NCBI GenBank assembly: GCA_963811025.1
Contig: CAWEPX010000003.1
Span: forward strand, 115,190 to 179,189
Origin: an uncultured delta proteobacterium
GTDB lineage: Bacteria; Desulfobacterota; Deferrimicrobia; Deferrimicrobiales; Deferrimicrobiaceae
Length of the DNA: 64,000 nt
Direction: 5' to 3'
This document shows positions 3,473-22,672 of this stretch, piece by piece. Each line of letters begins with the position of its first letter. Position 1 is the stretch's first letter. Below the pieces are notes generated by a model, which ran no database searches, was not told the origin of the DNA, and saw nothing but the letters and a program-made list of their open reading frames with translations. Position numbers and translations under genes: made by a program.

Positions 3473-3566
3473 TGGCGGAGAGGGAGGGATTCGAACCCTC
3501 GAGGCGGGGATTAGCCACCTACGCGATTTCCAGTCGCGTTCCTTCGGCCAGCTCGGACACCTCTCC
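3473..3566 (-). tRNA. tRNA-Ser (anticodon GGA), long variable arm, CCA encoded
   Basis: Cloverleaf derived by hand: acceptor GGAGAGG/CCUCUCC, T-arm GAGGGUUCGAAUCCCUC, anticodon loop CUGGAAA. 94 nt. Confidence 0.9.
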
Positions 3567-3612
3567 GTACAACCCCGGTTCTCTTCGGCGGCACCGGCAA
3601 CTACCGGGAATC

Positions 3613-3638
3613 GGCGGCGGCTCCGGTTCGAATCCCCG
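3613..3638. repeat. 26-bp repeat copy 2, followed by CCGGATCTCCGG hairpin
   Basis: Exact match to 3385-3410. Confidence 0.6.
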
Positions 3639-3659
3639 GATCTCCGGCAATCGAAAAAC

Positions 3660-3753
<94 letters not shown>

Positions 3754-3816
3754 AAACCATCGGGGACGTTCCCGGTTCCCATTCGAGATGTGGAAGAGGA
3801 GTGTCCCCGCTCATCC

Positions 3817-3904
3817 TGGCGGAGGGAGTAGGATTCGAACCTACGGAAGCTCGCGCTTCAGCGGTTTTCAAGACCGCTGCCTTAAGCCACTCGGCCATCC
3901 CTCC
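3817..3904 (-). tRNA. tRNA-Ser (anticodon UGA), CCA encoded
   Basis: Acceptor GGAGGGA/UCCCUCC, T-arm GUAGGUUCGAAUCCUAC, anticodon loop CUUGAAA. 88 nt. Confidence 0.9.
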
Positions 3905-17127: not shown

Positions 17128-18297
17128 ATGGAAAATCCCGGGTCAGGGATGAAGATCGCTCTCGTCCGGTACCGCTACTCCTCCCACGGGGGCGCGGAGC
17201 GGTATCTCGACATGCTGGCGGCCGGTTTGCAGGCATCGGGGGCACAGGTCCGGGTCCTCTCCTCCTCCTGGGAGGGAGAGAACGTCACGCGATTGCCGTG
17301 GGAGAAGCTCTCCGTGCCTCGTCGTCCTGTCCCTTTGCGCCTGTGGCTGTTCGCCCGGGCGGTACGGTCGTGGGCGAGGGCGCACCCGGACTGGCTTCTC
17401 TTCTCCCTCGAACGGATCCCGGGAGTGCAGGTCTACCGGGCGGGGGACGGCTGCCACGCGGAGTGGCTGATCCGGAAGAGAGCGCTTCGCCCGTTGTCCT
17501 GGAGGCTGGATTCCCTCCGTCCGCTCAACCGGTCCTATCTTCGCCTGGAACGGGAGATGTTCCGCTCCCCGGCCCTGCAAGCCGTGATCGCGAACTCGGA
17601 ACGGGGGAAGGAAGAGATCTCCCGACACTACGGAGTGCCCCGCGGGAAGATCACCGTCGTATACAACGGGGTGGAACTCTCCCGGTTTCCGGAGAAGCGG
17701 AAGGAGGAGGCCCGGCGAATCCTGCGGTGCCGCTACGGTCTCTCGGAGGAGGGCCCCGTTTTCCTGTACGTAGGGTCCGGTTTCGCCCGCAAGGGAGTGG
17801 GAACCCTGGTTCGGGCGGCGGCCCGTCTCGCGGGGAAGGGGCGTTCGTTCCGGGTGATCGTCGGAGGGAAGGGGAATCCCGGTCCGTACCGGGGGATGGC
17901 GGGGGAGGCGCGGGACCGGGTGATCTTTCCCGGCCCGATCCGGGAACCGGAGGATCATTTCCTGGGGGCGGACGCCTTTGTCTTCCCCACGGTGTACGAG
18001 CCCTTCAGCAACGCCTGCCTGGAGGCGATGGCCGCCGGGATTCCGGTCATCACAACCCGGGTGAACGGCGTTTCCGAGATTCTCCGGGACGGGGAATCCG
18101 GCTTCCTCCTGGAGGACCCGATGGACGACTCGGCGTTGGCCGACGGGATGGACGCGCTTTTTTCCGGGGAAACCCGGAGCCGGATGGGACGCGAGGCGCG
18201 GCGGACGGCGGAGAAGCTTCCGGCCGAACGGAACGCCCGGGAGACGTTGCAGGTGCTCGCCCGCGCCTGGAAGGGACGGACCGGGGAAGCGTCCTAG
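17128..18297 (+). CDS. GT4 glycosyltransferase (WaaG-like LPS core glycosyltransferase)
   Basis: MKIALVRYRYSSHGGAERYL...EPFSNACLEAMAAGIPVITT. An alternative start at 17149 is possible. Confidence 0.8.
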   Translation: MENPGSGMKIALVRYRYSSHGGAERYLDMLAAGLQASGAQVRVLSSSWEGENVTRLPWEKLSVPRRPVPLRLWLFARAVRSWARAHPDWLLFSLERIPGVQVYRAGDGCHAEWLIRKRALRPLSWRLDSLRPLNRSYLRLEREMFRSPALQAVIANSERGKEEISRHYGVPRGKITVVYNGVELSRFPEKRKEEARRILRCRYGLSEEGPVFLYVGSGFARKGVGTLVRAAARLAGKGRSFRVIVGGKGNPGPYRGMAGEARDRVIFPGPIREPEDHFLGADAFVFPTVYEPFSNACLEAMAAGIPVITTRVNGVSEILRDGESGFLLEDPMDDSALADGMDALFSGETRSRMGREARRTAEKLPAERNARETLQVLARAWKGRTGEAS

Positions 18298-18317
18298 GGA
18301 TCCCGCGGTTTCTCCGC

Positions 18318-20618
18318 CTATACCAGCAAAACCAGAAGTTCCTCCGCCGCCTCCCGGAGCATCTCCTCGTATTTCGCCAGATTCGGCACCTCGCTGCCGT
18401 CGAGGAACCCCACTGCCCGTCCCTGCTGCTTCGCTGTGCCCCCGGAGGCGAGCACACGGTTGGCGCTCCCGCGGAGTCCCCTCCCCTCGTCCGTCAGCAG
18501 GTACCGGATCTTCGAGCCGGCCCGCAGCGTCACCCCCCGTCCGCACAGCTCGCGGGTAACCGCGGCGGCGACCGTGTCGGTGACGTACTGCTCCGGCGCC
18601 CTGGACAGGCGCCTCGCGACCGCCAGCGCCTCCGGCGGGACGCGCCCTTCCCGCAGTTCCGCCGCTGCGGATTCCACGATCTCCCGCAGGCGAGGCAGCA
18701 TGGTGCGCAGCGCGTCCAGGTTCCCGGCCTCGGCCATCTCCGCAAGCAACGCCTGCTGGAGGGACGCGACGAAGGGGGGCGTATCGGAGCGGCGCATCGC
18801 GATCCCGCGCGCCTTGATCCCGCCGCCCGCGAACGCCCCGACGAACCGGTTCGGGACGGCGACCGACGGGTTTCGCTTCGAGGGAAGGAAGGCGAGCCAC
18901 CGGTAGATCCCTTCCAGGGCGATCGGCATCCCCGTTTCGGCGGTGATGGCCTCCGCCAGCCGCCGGTAGTCTGCCTCCTTGGCGCCGGCGCGCACGACCC
19001 ACACGGCGTCGGTCAGGCCGTGCAGGAAGAAAAACCCCTCGCGCTCGGCGACCTCCTTGGCGCAGAGGAGCTTCTCCCGCCCCCAGGCGGTGACCGCCTC
19101 GTGCGCCTCGATCCGGCCGAACCGGGCGTTCCTGTACCCGAGGAACCCGAAGCAGACGACGAGGATCCACTTGAGCGCCGCCTGCCGCTTCCGGAAGAGG
19201 TCGCGCTCCTCGTCGGTGGCGGCCGTCCTCTGGCGTTCCTTGAGAAGCCGCCGTTTTTCGAGGACGGGGGCCAGCACCCCCGGGATGAGACCCCTGCGGC
19301 GGGCGCACGTGTGGAAGCCGATCTCGGGGACGGGGAGGCCCGGGCGGCAGCAGCGGCAGTTGACCGTCTCCGGGGAGATGTTGTACCGGTCCATGAGCGA
19401 CGGGTACATCGAGGCGAAGTCGAGCTCGCCCGTGTTTTCATGCAGGCCGGGCCGGGGCAGATAGGTGAGTCCCCCCTTGTCGGCCGTGACGAGCCCGGCG
19501 CCGGTCTTGAACTCTTCCGGCTCCCGCTTCTTGTAGGGTACGAGGATTCCCTGCGAAAGCGCCGCCGCGACCTGCATCGCCGAGATGGCGGTCCCCGGCG
19601 ACGAGCGGGCCATGCGCTGCAGCGGGATGCCGGAGAGGCGGCAGAGCTCGATCAGGCCCGGGAGGCCGGTCTCCCCGAAGAGGAACGAGTTGCGGGCGTC
19701 CACGTGCCACCGGCCGGAGAGGGTGTGCGGCGCGGCGCGGAAGATCACCCGCCCGTACGAGAAGTAGGACCGCTCGCGGGCGCGCCGGATGCCGTCTCTT
19801 TCCGGATCCTGCCCTTCCTGCGCGGGGCGTGCCCCTTTCCCGGTCGCCCTCCCCGGCGGTCGGGGGGCGCGACCGAGGGGGAGCGGCATGCGGAGCCGGG
19901 AGGCGAGGGCGAGCATCCGCGGCAGGAGGTAGTCGTCTCCGTACTCCGTGACGAGCAGGTCGGGGTCCGCGCGGGCCAGGAGCCGAAGGAACTCCCGGAG
20001 GAAATCCGTTCCGTTCTCCCAGCAGAGGACGTGGGTGGTGCCGTCGGCCGAGAAAACGAGCGGCTGTGCCCTTCCGTGCGCGGGGTGTCCCGTTCCTTCC
20101 GCCCGGAGGAAGGCGCGGGAGAGCGACGGGAGGGGAGAGACGACGTCCCACGGCGAATCGAGGGCGCGGGCGGAGAGAATCCTTCCGTCTTCCGCGCATT
20201 CCACCTCGGCGAAGGAAAACGGGAAGAGTCCGGTGGCGTACGCGAACTGCTCCTCCGGGGCGATGTCGGCGTTGGCGAGCGCCTCCGCCCCGAACGCGCT
20301 TTCCGCCTTCCGGACGGTCGCCCGAAGGAGGAAAGGCGCCGGGACGGCGAACGTCCACGCCGGGACCGTCCTGCCGGAGAAGAACTCGATCCCTTCGCCT
20401 TTCCGGACGTCGCATCTCCAGCGCCCGGCGGCGGCCCGGACCGCGGTCTCCCGCACGCTCCGGCCCGTCACGGCGAAGGAGGGGCGGAACGGGGCGAACA
20501 GGGTCACGGTGTCGCCGGCGGCCGTCCGGAACCAGACCTCCATCCCGTCCCGCGCGGCGAGGAGGTCGAGCACCCACCCGGTCAGGGAAAGGGCAGAGGA
20601 GTTCTTCAAACGTTTCAT
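18318..20618 (-). CDS. polB: family B DNA polymerase (Pol II-like) with variant motif C
   Basis: Motif A LDFASMYPSLM, motif B KWILVVCFGFLGYRNARFG, motif C HGLTDA in place of YGDTDS, and an exo-II-like YGDDYLLP. 766 aa from ATG 20618. The in-frame upstream extension to 20900 is low-complexity and is rejected as coding. Confidence 0.75.
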   Translation of the reverse strand: MKRLKNSSALSLTGWVLDLLAARDGMEVWFRTAAGDTVTLFAPFRPSFAVTGRSVRETAVRAAAGRWRCDVRKGEGIEFFSGRTVPAWTFAVPAPFLLRATVRKAESAFGAEALANADIAPEEQFAYATGLFPFSFAEVECAEDGRILSARALDSPWDVVSPLPSLSRAFLRAEGTGHPAHGRAQPLVFSADGTTHVLCWENGTDFLREFLRLLARADPDLLVTEYGDDYLLPRMLALASRLRMPLPLGRAPRPPGRATGKGARPAQEGQDPERDGIRRARERSYFSYGRVIFRAAPHTLSGRWHVDARNSFLFGETGLPGLIELCRLSGIPLQRMARSSPGTAISAMQVAAALSQGILVPYKKREPEEFKTGAGLVTADKGGLTYLPRPGLHENTGELDFASMYPSLMDRYNISPETVNCRCCRPGLPVPEIGFHTCARRRGLIPGVLAPVLEKRRLLKERQRTAATDEERDLFRKRQAALKWILVVCFGFLGYRNARFGRIEAHEAVTAWGREKLLCAKEVAEREGFFFLHGLTDAVWVVRAGAKEADYRRLAEAITAETGMPIALEGIYRWLAFLPSKRNPSVAVPNRFVGAFAGGGIKARGIAMRRSDTPPFVASLQQALLAEMAEAGNLDALRTMLPRLREIVESAAAELREGRVPPEALAVARRLSRAPEQYVTDTVAAAVTRELCGRGVTLRAGSKIRYLLTDEGRGLRGSANRVLASGGTAKQQGRAVGFLDGSEVPNLAKYEEMLREAAEELLVLLV

Positions 20619-20952
20619 GTACGCCTTCCGTTGCGTTGAGCGCCCGTTGGTGGAGTGCCGGTAACCGGGCCCCTGGCTCGCGCGGGCTTCCCATCGGCTA
20701 CGCTCGCCGCACCAGCAACCTCGTTCCACAGGCCGCCTCGTGGAACCCTCCCGTTGCCTCAGGTCACCGGCTGCCGGCGCAGCGGCCGCAGGAGGAGGGC
20801 CGGAGTGAGGTAAAGCGCAGCCGTGCAGGTTGACCGCACGGCGAGCCACGAACGAAGGCCCCCTCCGAGGCTGCGGAGCCGTCCCCGGATCCCCGGACAA
20901 GGGGCACGGGCACCCGCGGGGGAGCGGACACGCCGGGCGCAGCCTTCCGGGC

Positions 20953-21237
20953 TCACGGGAGGTTCCCCGAGGAGCCGGCGACCCGTCGCTCGAGCTCCTC
21001 CACGCGGCGCAAAAGCTCCCGTACCGCCCGACGCTCCTCGACGAGGATGCTCATCAGGATCGCCTCGAACGGGACGGCGCGTCCCGAGCAGGTGCAGGCG
21101 GCGGTGTGGTACCTTGCCGCGGCGAACAGTTCGTCGAAGAGTTCGCGGTCCTCGCGTCGCAGCGCGCGCCGGAACGCTTTCCACGACTCCTCTTCGCGGT
21201 ACAGCTCCTGGGTGAAGGGGAGCACCGTGCGGCCCAT
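20953..21237 (-). CDS. hypothetical 94-aa helical protein within the lexA-polB block
   Basis: ORF in the same orientation, 8 nt downstream of the ImuA-like gene. It is rich in charged residues and predicted coiled coil. Confidence 0.4.
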   Translation of the reverse strand: MGRTVLPFTQELYREEESWKAFRRALRREDRELFDELFAAARYHTAACTCSGRAVPFEAILMSILVEERRAVRELLRRVEELERRVAGSSGNLP

Positions 21238-21245
21238 ATTATGCT

Positions 21246-21986
21246 TTACCTTTCAGGGGGACACCCTTGCGATACCGTAAATGAAACGCAAGAGTGTCCC
21301 CCGCCAGACGCCCTCTGCCCTTCCCCTTCCCGGCGCAGGAGGAGGCACGGGTCGGCGATCCGGACGAGGTGGCGGAAGAAGCCGGCCCGGTCGCCCCCCC
21401 TGGGAGCACTTTCCTTTCCCCGCGGCATGTTCCCCGAAGCGGCGGGGACCGCTGCGAAGGGGAAAGCATCCGAAGCAGGGGGGTCCGAGCCGACCAGCAC
21501 TACCCGCGTGCCGCCCGCCGCGAGCCGGCGCAGGGACGAAAGACAGTTCCGGAATACCCGGCACGCCTCCGCGTAGGGAACGTCGGCGTCCGCGAACGTC
21601 TCCGGAAGCCCGAAGACGACCGCGAGCCCCGCCCCGGAGCGGTCGAGGGCGGCCTCAAGCCGCCGCGACAGGAGCGCCTCCATCTGGTGGCACGTGAAGG
21701 CGCGGGAGACGAGGATGCGGGAGAGCGCGGCCCTGCCGCTTCCGCCCAGTGCCCTCTCCGCCTTGCCGATCTCGTACGGGTCGAACCGGTTTCCGCCGTC
21801 CACCGCCACCACGGGCTCCCCGGCCACGAGGGGGCGGGCCAGCGCGCGCAGCGCCAGCCGGTGGGCGCCCGTCCCGAAAAAGCCGGCGAGCTTGCCCGGC
21901 GCGGGGCGCAGGCAAAGGGCGGAGGCGCGCTCGATGTCCGTGGCGGCGGGGGAGACGACCGGCGTATGGGGCGCGCGACCGGGCAA
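21246..21986 (-). CDS. ImuA-like (inactivated RecA/SulA-fold) SOS protein
   Basis: VVAVDGGNRFDPYEIGKAERALGGSGRAALSRILVSRAFTCHQMEALLSRRLEAALDRSGAGLAVVFGLP resembles the ImuA core, which lacks a Walker A motif. It starts 17 nt after the lexA stop. Confidence 0.5.
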   Translation of the reverse strand: MPGRAPHTPVVSPAATDIERASALCLRPAPGKLAGFFGTGAHRLALRALARPLVAGEPVVAVDGGNRFDPYEIGKAERALGGSGRAALSRILVSRAFTCHQMEALLSRRLEAALDRSGAGLAVVFGLPETFADADVPYAEACRVFRNCLSSLRRLAAGGTRVVLVGSDPPASDAFPFAAVPAASGNMPRGKESAPRGGDRAGFFRHLVRIADPCLLLRREGEGQRASGGGHSCVSFTVSQGCPPER

Positions 21987-22003
21987 GGCGGACTCCTTCG
22001 TTC

Positions 22004-22615
22004 CTACAGTTTCCGGAAAATGCCGACGACTTTCCCCGCGATCCGGAAGGACGGGAAGCCGTCCGGCACGTCGAGGGGGGCATAGGCGGGGTTGGCGGGC
22101 TCGAGGCGGACTCCTCCGTTGCGACGGCGGATCCGTTTGACCGTGGCCTCCCCGTCGACGACGGCGACCACGATCTCCCCGTCCTCGGCGGTCTCCTGCG
22201 CCCGTACGAGGACGTAGTCCCCCTCGCAGATGTGCGCCCCTTCCATGCTGTCCCCTTTCACGCGGAGGGAGAAGATCTCCCCCTCGCCGGCCAGCGAAGG
22301 ATCCAGGAGGAGTTCCTCCTCGGCGAGTTCAATCGCCTCCCGGGGGCTTCCGGCGGGCACCCGTCCCAGCACCGGGACGCGCAAGGGGGAAGGAAGCGCC
22401 GCCTCCCCGAGAAACTCGATCCGGCGGGGGGATTTCCGGTGGCGGCGGAGGTACCCCTTTTTTTCAAGCAAATCCATGTAATAAAAGGCGTTTTTCTCCG
22501 CGATCCCGAAACGGTCCGCCACTTCCCTCGCGGTGGGGGCGAAGGAGCGGGAGAGGACGAACTCCCGCAGGAACGTGAGAACCCTGCGCTGTCTGGCGGT
22601 CAGCGGCCTGCCCAT
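22004..22615 (-). CDS. lexA: LexA repressor (S24 peptidase)
   Basis: N-terminal winged HTH (LTARQRRVLTFLREF...) and C-terminal Ser/Lys dyad region (VKGDSMEGAHICEGDYVLV...GKVVGIFRKL). 203 aa. Confidence 0.9.
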   Translation of the reverse strand: MGRPLTARQRRVLTFLREFVLSRSFAPTAREVADRFGIAEKNAFYYMDLLEKKGYLRRHRKSPRRIEFLGEAALPSPLRVPVLGRVPAGSPREAIELAEEELLLDPSLAGEGEIFSLRVKGDSMEGAHICEGDYVLVRAQETAEDGEIVVAVVDGEATVKRIRRRNGGVRLEPANPAYAPLDVPDGFPSFRIAGKVVGIFRKL

Positions 22616-22646
22616 ATGGGTATGCTGACATACCCATATGGGCAGG
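22607..22646. promoter_or_regulatory. 40-bp perfect palindrome with two CCCATATGGG boxes, overlapping the lexA start codon
   Basis: CCTGCCCATATGGGTATG-CTGA-CATACCCATATGGGCAGG; 18-bp arms. The two 10-bp self-palindromic boxes are 22 bp apart centre to centre. Confidence 0.6.
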
Positions 22647-22672
22647 TCAAGGGGGTGTGGGAAAGGGGGTTG

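Follow-up and report, generated by a model that had tools for sequence, protein, structure and literature searches.

The stretch analysed here (hereafter the window; 64,000 nucleotides (nt) of contig CAWEPX010000003.1, from an uncultured Deferrimicrobiaceae genome, GCA_963811025.1) carries a block of four genes on the minus strand, encoding the repressor LexA, a 246-amino-acid protein related to RadA (iRadA), a 94-amino-acid protein (PPB2, Partner of PolB2), and a family-B DNA polymerase (PolB2). The locus is very probably a bacterial mutasome operon of the PolB2 type (iRadA-PPB2-PolB2), joined to lexA at its upstream end. Its features, in the direction of transcription, are:

22645-22650, minus strand: -35-like hexamer TTGACC, read from the sequence
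22611-22642 (core 22620-22633), unstranded: putative LexA operator, a conserved palindrome
22004-22615, minus strand: lexA, 203 amino acids (TIGR00498, PF01726 and PF00717)
21246-21986, minus strand: iRadA gene, 246 amino acids, placed with RadA/RadB/Rad51 by profile and fold
20953-21237, minus strand: PPB2 gene, 94 amino acids (PF26485, MGRT arm)
20619-20952, minus strand: PPB2-polB2 spacer, 334 nt, 73% GC, without codon periodicity
20655-20890 (core about 20700-20880), minus strand: one copy of a dispersed GC-rich repeat, with matches at unrelated loci
18318-20618, minus strand: polB2, 766 amino acids (PF00136, PolB2 motifs)

The first three genes are closely spaced, with Shine-Dalgarno-like sequences. 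The lexA stop codon is followed after 17 nt by the TTG start of the 246-amino-acid open reading frame (ORF), with AAGGAG 7 nt ahead of the TTG, and the stop of this ORF is followed after 8 nt by the start of the 94-amino-acid ORF. The polB2 ATG is preceded by a Shine-Dalgarno-like GGAAGG at 6 nt. The original prediction had described four minus-strand ORFs at these coordinates, which an ORF check bears out, and had noted that ImuB, one of the polymerase homologues of the lexA-imuA-imuB-dnaE2 cassette, is missing; it is, as is DnaE2, and the block consists of lexA, iRadA, PPB2 and PolB2 only.

The product of the first gene is identified as the SOS repressor LexA by every domain and motif sought. 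The full-length protein matches TIGR00498 (4e-54; 183 bits against a cutoff of 111) as well as both PF01726 and PF00717, corresponding to a winged-helix DNA-binding domain and an S24 self-cleaving peptidase, and the translation contains the Ala-Gly cleavage site (VPAGSP), the catalytic serine (GDSMEG), and the catalytic lysine (ATVKRI).

The 246-amino-acid protein matched no Pfam or NCBIfam model at E<=1, the ImuA models included, and its 228 close homologues, from Deferrimicrobiota and "Deltaproteobacteria" metagenome-assembled genomes, are all unnamed. A profile built from 28 of the 228 retrieved 1516 cluster representatives from a library of 1.8 billion proteins, and its top matches in the PDB were archaeal RadB (E 4.7e-4) and RadA (2.5e-3). 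The Walker A motif of RadB (GPYASGKT) aligned to G-x-G-A-H-R-L in the window protein, where the GKT is replaced (GTGAHRL), in agreement with the earlier remark that this member of the RecA superfamily has no P-loop. The structure model opens directly with the core beta-alpha fold, with no N-terminal helical domain, and fold comparison placed it nearest to RadB, RadA and Rad51, not RecA. Because profile and fold both place it with RadB/RadA/Rad51, the protein falls outside the ImuA/RecA lineage and is assigned as an inactivated Rad51/RadA-lineage protein (iRadA), predicted to comprise the core ATPase fold only. The initial description as an ImuA-like protein with a RecA fold therefore holds at the level of the superfamily and fails at the level of the lineage.

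The 94-amino-acid protein is PPB2, formed of three helices and a flexible MGRT arm. This identity rests on the precomputed annotation of PF26485 (DUF8156; arCOG07300), present on this exact protein and on every listed homologue and missed by a local Pfam scan, together with a test for the MGRT arm. The N-terminus reads MGRTVLPFT, and all 73 related loci compared, which come from many phyla, have an xGRT N-terminus (MGRT in 68, and GTG or other start codons in five). The AlphaFold2 model (pLDDT 82.9) has helices at residues 5-25, 28-50, and 57-90, with residues 1-4 disordered.

The polymerase is assigned to family B and, within it, to the archaeal PolB2 lineage. It matches PF00136 at 5e-29, its nearest PDB chains are euryarchaeal PolB (about 1e-47), and it is 82% identical over its full length to the PolB2 of "Deltaproteobacteria bacterium CSP1-8" and 37% identical over the core to a haloarchaeal PolB2 (E 3e-39). 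Motif A is intact (LDFASMYPS, 399-407), while motif C reads LTD (535-537) rather than DTD, with HGLTDA aligned against the archaeal YIDTDG; all 53 full-length PolB2 homologues compared have LTD or IVD at this site and conserve LDFASMYPS. The 3'-5' exonuclease active site is lost, with its motifs degenerate. The exonuclease domain PF03104 gave no match even at E<=1, the archaeal Exo II motif NGDSFD aligned with YGDDYL (Asp to Leu), and the Exo I region in PolB2 homologues reads FAEVE, RAAVD or YGDYD, not FDIET; in Exo III, read by eye from the alignment, the Asp is kept and the Tyr is not. The D(K/R) motif is present as DK at 380-381, with EEFKTGA ahead of it, in the segment EEFKTGAGLVTADKGG (368-383), which resembles the Rad51-type oligomerization segment and is the predicted iRadA-binding site. 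The pattern E-x-F-K...D-[KR]-G-G is kept in the 53 homologues, most of which have S/T and next A/G behind the Lys, and the haloarchaeal PolB2 shares the segment (EFYKPMGTLHDADRGG). A polymerase of the Escherichia coli Pol II type (group G1) was considered and set aside, as the protein scored 52.5 bits against a cutoff of 570 for the Pol II model NF004421 (the best models being archaeal-type, PRK05761), has the LTD form of motif C, and lacks an exonuclease-domain match.

These substitutions bear on whether PolB2 polymerizes DNA at all. In the older view of PolB2, in which Makarova et al. 2014 (PMC4104785) called polymerases of this type inactivated, the protein would be catalytically dead and the complex would serve a non-polymerase role, for instance in sensing damage or in regulating the restart of replication. 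The change of the first Asp of DxD to Leu or Ile in all 53 homologues, with the loss of the exonuclease residues, fits this view. However, the same homologues strictly keep the Asp of motif A, the second Asp of motif C, and the KxRG/RRxD region, and the Dpo2 of Sulfolobus islandicus, which has IID at the motif C site, is described in work cited in PMC11791011 as an active polymerase required for targeted mutagenesis. A dead polymerase is therefore improbable, though it fares better than the other alternatives weighed below.

The arrangement of the three genes was surveyed using a pattern derived from the iRadA alignment, with which at least 593 loci were confirmed in genomes of GTDB species. 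Gene order was counted in the best 80 loci (numbered with the prefix L below), from GTDB species representatives and picked solely by similarity to the 246-amino-acid protein. The three genes were all detected in 65 loci, every one of which has the order iRadA-PPB2-PolB2 on one strand, and in the remaining 15 no detected gene was out of order. Nearly all of these 15 end at a contig edge; in L038 and L067 downstream sequence is present and the partner genes were undetected. The layout is thus conserved far beyond chance. The bacterial loci span the Deferrimicrobia, Nitrospirota, Nitrospinae, Bacteroidota, Ignavibacteriota, Chloroflexota, Acidobacteriota, Methylomirabilota, Poribacteria, and Abyssobacteria, and two loci are archaeal (Bathyarchaeia and Thermoplasmata). 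In all Deferrimicrobia-type loci with the upstream flank present, lexA lies directly upstream of iRadA, at a spacing of 6-58 nt or with a slight overlap. It is also directly upstream in several loci of the Nitrospirota, Methylomirabilota, Poribacteria, and Abyssobacteria, and is not directly upstream in the surveyed loci of the Bacteroidota or Ignavibacteria.

Two observations concern individual genomes in the survey. One single-cell genome, Nitrospinae bacterium AH_259_B05_G02_I21, has three contigs (L043, L047, and L060) each with iRadA-PPB2-PolB2, which could represent paralogous operons or an artefact of amplification or assembly. Three short contigs labelled Limnocylindria/Actinomycetota (L008, L025, and L039) have operons with an iRadA 67-91% identical to that of the window, and their labels probably reflect a binning error rather than recent transfer.

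A 32-bp palindrome, CCCATATGGGTATG-TCAG-CATACCCATATGGG, lies at 22611-22642 with the core GTATR-N4-YATAC at 22620-22633, and overlaps both the lexA start codon (22613-22615) and a weak -10-like sequence, CAGCAT (22622-22627). The core occurs once in the 64-kb window, and in 491 kb of unrelated loci it was found only at the two lexA genes there. Its position is kept in nearly all Deferrimicrobia loci, usually as one copy per locus. In three loci where PPB2 and polB2 are split (L016, L028, and L032), an additional copy lies right against the start codon of polB2, with one more against that of iRadA in L028 and L032; such extra copies at polB2 or iRadA starts occur only where the operon is split. 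Because the palindrome is conserved at lexA and is copied again before polB2 and iRadA where the operon is split, it is likely the LexA operator of the operon, and is treated here as the candidate for that role. The distance from TTGACC to CAGCAT is 17 nt, and TTGACC is kept in the closest relatives; used as a promoter, this pair would place the transcription start at or next to the lexA ATG and yield a leaderless mRNA. The sequences that split PPB2 from polB2 differ, being a hybrid sensor histidine kinase in L016 (6950-10270), a hybrid sensor histidine kinase and a GGDEF protein in L028 (7960-13170), and a 0.7-kb insert in L032 (5699-6350).

In the window, PPB2 and polB2 are separated by the 334-nt spacer. 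GC content at the three codon positions of its open frame (20619-20900) is flat, at 0.71/0.75/0.74, as against 0.69/0.53/0.91 in the gene body, and the frame upstream of the aligned polB2 start closes in four relatives (L009, which is CSP1-8, L012, L013, and L032). Because of this flat profile and the closure of the frame, the ATG at 20618 is taken as the real start and the gap as non-coding, which upholds the GC-rich gap reported in the original prediction. An N-terminal extension of PolB2 from a TTG at 20900 (860 amino acids) was rejected on the same grounds.

The spacer is absent in L004, where PPB2 and polB2 overlap by 4 nt, and measures 129-682 nt in the nearest clade. That of CSP1-8 is 80% identical to that of the window, and L007 and L011 have part of the spacer element at the same junction in the opposite orientation. 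A 19-mer from the spacer matched 108 metagenome stretches; among 80 of these that were retrieved, 78 are not PolB2 operons and two are. Up to 36 overlapping matches outside PolB2 operons extend over 40-280 nt at about 70-90% identity, many of them at contig ends. The repeat is about 180-235 nt long, its copies share conserved hairpins, and six predicted base pairs have compensatory changes among the copies. Because the same element occurs at 78 or more loci unrelated to PolB2, the gap is identified as one copy of a dispersed non-coding repeat, inserted at the PPB2-polB2 junction. The spacer matched no Rfam family at E<=1, neither a terminator nor a promoter consensus was found within it, and its single-sequence fold was no better than that of shuffled sequences (z = -0.14); a structured RNA, riboswitch, or attenuator in the gap was rejected on the lack of an Rfam match, the z-score, and the lack of a terminator. 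A weak inverted repeat between the 3' end of PPB2 and the spacer was also seen, possibly by chance. A palindrome search of the 64-kb window located no second operator motif in the gap, and as polB2 has no operator of its own, its control by the SOS response would depend on read-through. The repeat-filled junction is in effect a small natural experiment on how tightly polB2 needs to be coupled to its partners.

The same insertion invites the explanation that the operon is decaying in this genome, polB2 having been uncoupled or silenced by the repeat. The 334 nt inserted without an operator speak for it, given that other relatives with a split junction gained one. Against this, the polB2 ORF is intact at its full 766 amino acids, with a GC content of 0.91 at the third codon position and the Shine-Dalgarno-like GGAAGG, the locus is 99.5-99.7% identical across three independent assemblies, CSP1-8 has a homologous spacer together with an intact gene, and no terminator is predicted within the spacer. 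Decay of the operon is accordingly quite improbable, somewhat more so than a dead polymerase.

The operon itself has been described previously. PolB2 was linked to arCOG07300 and an inactivated radA, in bacteria as well, by Makarova et al. 2014, who also placed lexA in the same predicted operon in some bacteria, including the four-gene Leptospirillum ferriphilum LFML04_0990-0993 (PMC4104785). The partners owe their current names, iRadA and PPB2, to Timinskas, Timinskas and Venclovas 2025, who also defined the substitution in DxD, the DK motif with a docking segment like that of Rad51, and the MGRT arm; in their model, PolB2, iRadA and PPB2 form a heteropentamer in the ratio 1:1:3 (PMC11791011). 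In their data, iRadA-PPB2-PolB2 is the sole order in bacteria, lexA is enriched alongside, and the phylogeny of PolB2 points to a single transfer of the whole operon from archaea to bacteria; data file 1 lists CSP1-8 and Ca. Deferrimicrobium borealis with LexA-iRadA-PPB2-PolB2 and the motif HGLTDAVWV (PMC11791011). A 2026 survey placed such polymerases in group G2/PolB2, with an inactivated proofreader, and proposed a novel mutasome (PMC12926913). Because a lexA-containing operon was published in 2014 and the 2025 table includes CSP1-8, whose PolB2 is 82% identical to that of the window, the operon is already known and catalogued in the same lineage, and the novelty suggested for it as a variant cassette falls away. 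Bacteria obtained this polymerase system for damage tolerance from archaea, and it does not represent a novel form of the imuA-imuB-dnaE2 cassette.

The present analysis establishes the gene identities, motifs, folds, conserved synteny, and conserved operator-like palindrome of the locus. From these we infer that LexA binds the palindrome, that the genes are co-transcribed, and that the complex assembles and has translesion activity in a bacterium. In the undamaged cell, LexA bound to the palindrome would cover the -10 sequence and start codon of lexA and repress the whole lexA-iRadA-PPB2-polB2 transcript. Upon DNA damage, RecA on single-stranded DNA would trigger the self-cleavage of LexA at the Ala-Gly site, and the operon would be transcribed. 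Following the model of Timinskas et al. 2025, the products would assemble as one PolB2, one iRadA, and a PPB2 trimer, with the PolB2 loop before the DK motif predicted to dock on iRadA as Rad51 subunits dock on one another, and one MGRT arm of PPB2 predicted to insert between PolB2 and iRadA near the DNA (modelled in PMC11791011). The complex, free of proofreading, would extend mismatched or lesion-opposed primer ends and so confer damage tolerance at a cost in mutations, comparable to what is reported for the genetics of the archaeal Dpo2 in work cited in PMC11791011.

Several points weigh against reading the locus as a working SOS-controlled mutasome. The bacterial PolB2 complex is known only in silico, and its function is carried over from the Sulfolobales (PMC11791011, PMC12926913). 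The promoter hexamers are weak, and a consensus promoter scan called no promoter. As polB2 stands beyond the 334-nt repeat insertion and lacks a separate operator, its co-regulation with the other genes is an assumption. The fold search with PPB2 gave generic helical matches only. Lastly, no beta-clamp motif (QxxLF) was found in the PolB2 or iRadA of the window, the tails having been checked by eye. The window PolB2 ends in ...EELLVLLV (18321-18380), other Deferrimicrobia PolB2 tails are similar and without the motif, and the clamp-motif columns are blank for the Deferrimicrobia entries in the published table (PMC11791011). Lacking a clamp-binding motif, the recruitment of the complex to the fork is unexplained, which raises the question for the Deferrimicrobia clade of how it reaches a stalled fork. 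Among the Bacteroidota and Ignavibacteriota, PolB2 tails of the form QGSLFD or QQELF have a clamp-type QxxLF (L045, L049-L054, L062-L066, L073, L078, and L085). Across the family, a clamp motif in iRadA or PolB2 is common, though some members do without it.

With these points counted, a PolB2 mutasome operon behind lexA is still by a wide measure the most probable account of the locus, and the broader proposal of an SOS-linked cassette built on a family-B polymerase and a RecA-fold accessory protein is supported. The more specific idea that it is a variant lexA-imuA-imuB-dnaE2 cassette, in which ImuB and DnaE2 gave way to a family-B polymerase recruited by an ImuA-like protein, can draw on lexA standing first, followed by a RecA-fold protein without a P-loop, and on the published ImuA1 and ImuA2 groups that likewise lack Walker motifs (PMC12926913), but is effectively refuted and the least credible of the three alternatives, given the placement of the 246-amino-acid protein with RadA/RadB/Rad51 and not RecA, with no NCBIfam or Pfam match, the archaeal relatives of iRadA in the same three-gene context (L075 and L081), the absence of a PPB2 counterpart from the Imu cassette, and the single archaea-to-bacteria operon transfer indicated by the PolB2 phylogeny (PMC11791011). 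Rather than a refilled Imu cassette, the locus is a separate iRadA-PPB2-PolB2 operon of archaeal origin (PMC11791011).

Two side findings, the operator palindrome and the repeat in the gap, may be new. A description of the palindrome was found neither in PMC4104785 and PMC11791011 nor by a full-text literature search, which also returned no paper naming Deferrimicrobia together with LexA. Taken jointly, they allow a tentative reading that we rate at somewhat short of even. In its first part, GTATR-N4-YATAC, inside a longer palindrome that adjoins the start codon, would be the Deferrimicrobiota LexA operator. It would cover the -10 sequence and the transcription start wherever lexA, iRadA, or polB2 is transcribed without a leader, and would arise anew before polB2 whenever foreign genes split the operon. 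In its second, the PPB2-polB2 junction of this clade would be a place where signalling genes and, in both orientations, a dispersed and structured GC-rich repeat have landed repeatedly, and the repeat may lower the expression of polB2 relative to PPB2 and iRadA.

The window locus offers no new principle. Descriptions of the PolB2 system in bacteria have so far been purely computational, and each well-resolved locus could therefore serve for the first experiments on a bacterial one; here the four-gene operon is clean and its candidate operator sharply delimited, so that control by LexA can be tested directly.

The genes flanking the block encode an enoyl-CoA hydratase and glycosyltransferases. 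The GC content of the operon is above that of its flanks (0.70-0.75 for polB2 and iRadA, compared to 0.58-0.66 for the glycosyltransferase and permease neighbours; window positions 18000-22000). Elsewhere in the window, three tandem tRNA-Ser genes (3473-3904, minus strand) have the anticodons GGA, GCT, and TGA.

The closest known counterparts are the operons of Leptospirillum ferriphilum, CSP1-8, and Ca. Deferrimicrobium borealis, whose four genes and gene order match those of the window; the latter two share the PolB2 motif HGLTDAVWV with its LTD, and no clamp motif is recorded for either. CSP1-8 also has a homologous spacer, whereas in other Deferrimicrobia relatives such as L004 the genes abut or overlap where the window has the 334-nt repeat-derived spacer. 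The Dpo2 system of Sulfolobus islandicus, the archaeal one that has been studied by experiment, resembles that of the window in its three-protein set, substituted DxD (IID, compared to LTD in the window), dead exonuclease, DK motif, MGRT arm with a Thr at position 9, and link to DNA damage. It differs in that archaeal regulation relies on Orc1/Cdc6-type factors, not LexA, and that the archaeal clamp is PCNA. Haloarchaeal PolB2 is only about 37% identical to the window protein over the conserved core.

Beyond the PolB2 systems, ImuA-ImuB-DnaE2 (ImuC) is likewise a LexA-controlled multi-protein mutagenic polymerase module with an inert RecA-superfamily subunit, but its polymerase is of family C, its adaptor ImuB is an inactive Y-family protein, and PPB2 is missing from it. 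By lineage, ImuA goes with RecA and the iRadA of the window with Rad51/RadA, and the two cassettes are of independent origin. E. coli Pol II is an SOS-induced family-B polymerase, as PolB2 is predicted to be, but consists of one subunit and keeps both its DEDDy proofreader and its DTD intact. PMC11791011 points to an architectural parallel with E. coli Pol V (UmuD'2C-RecA-ATP), a multimeric translesion polymerase induced by the SOS response that combines a recombinase subunit with a small oligomeric partner; Pol V differs in its catalytic subunit, which is of the Y family.

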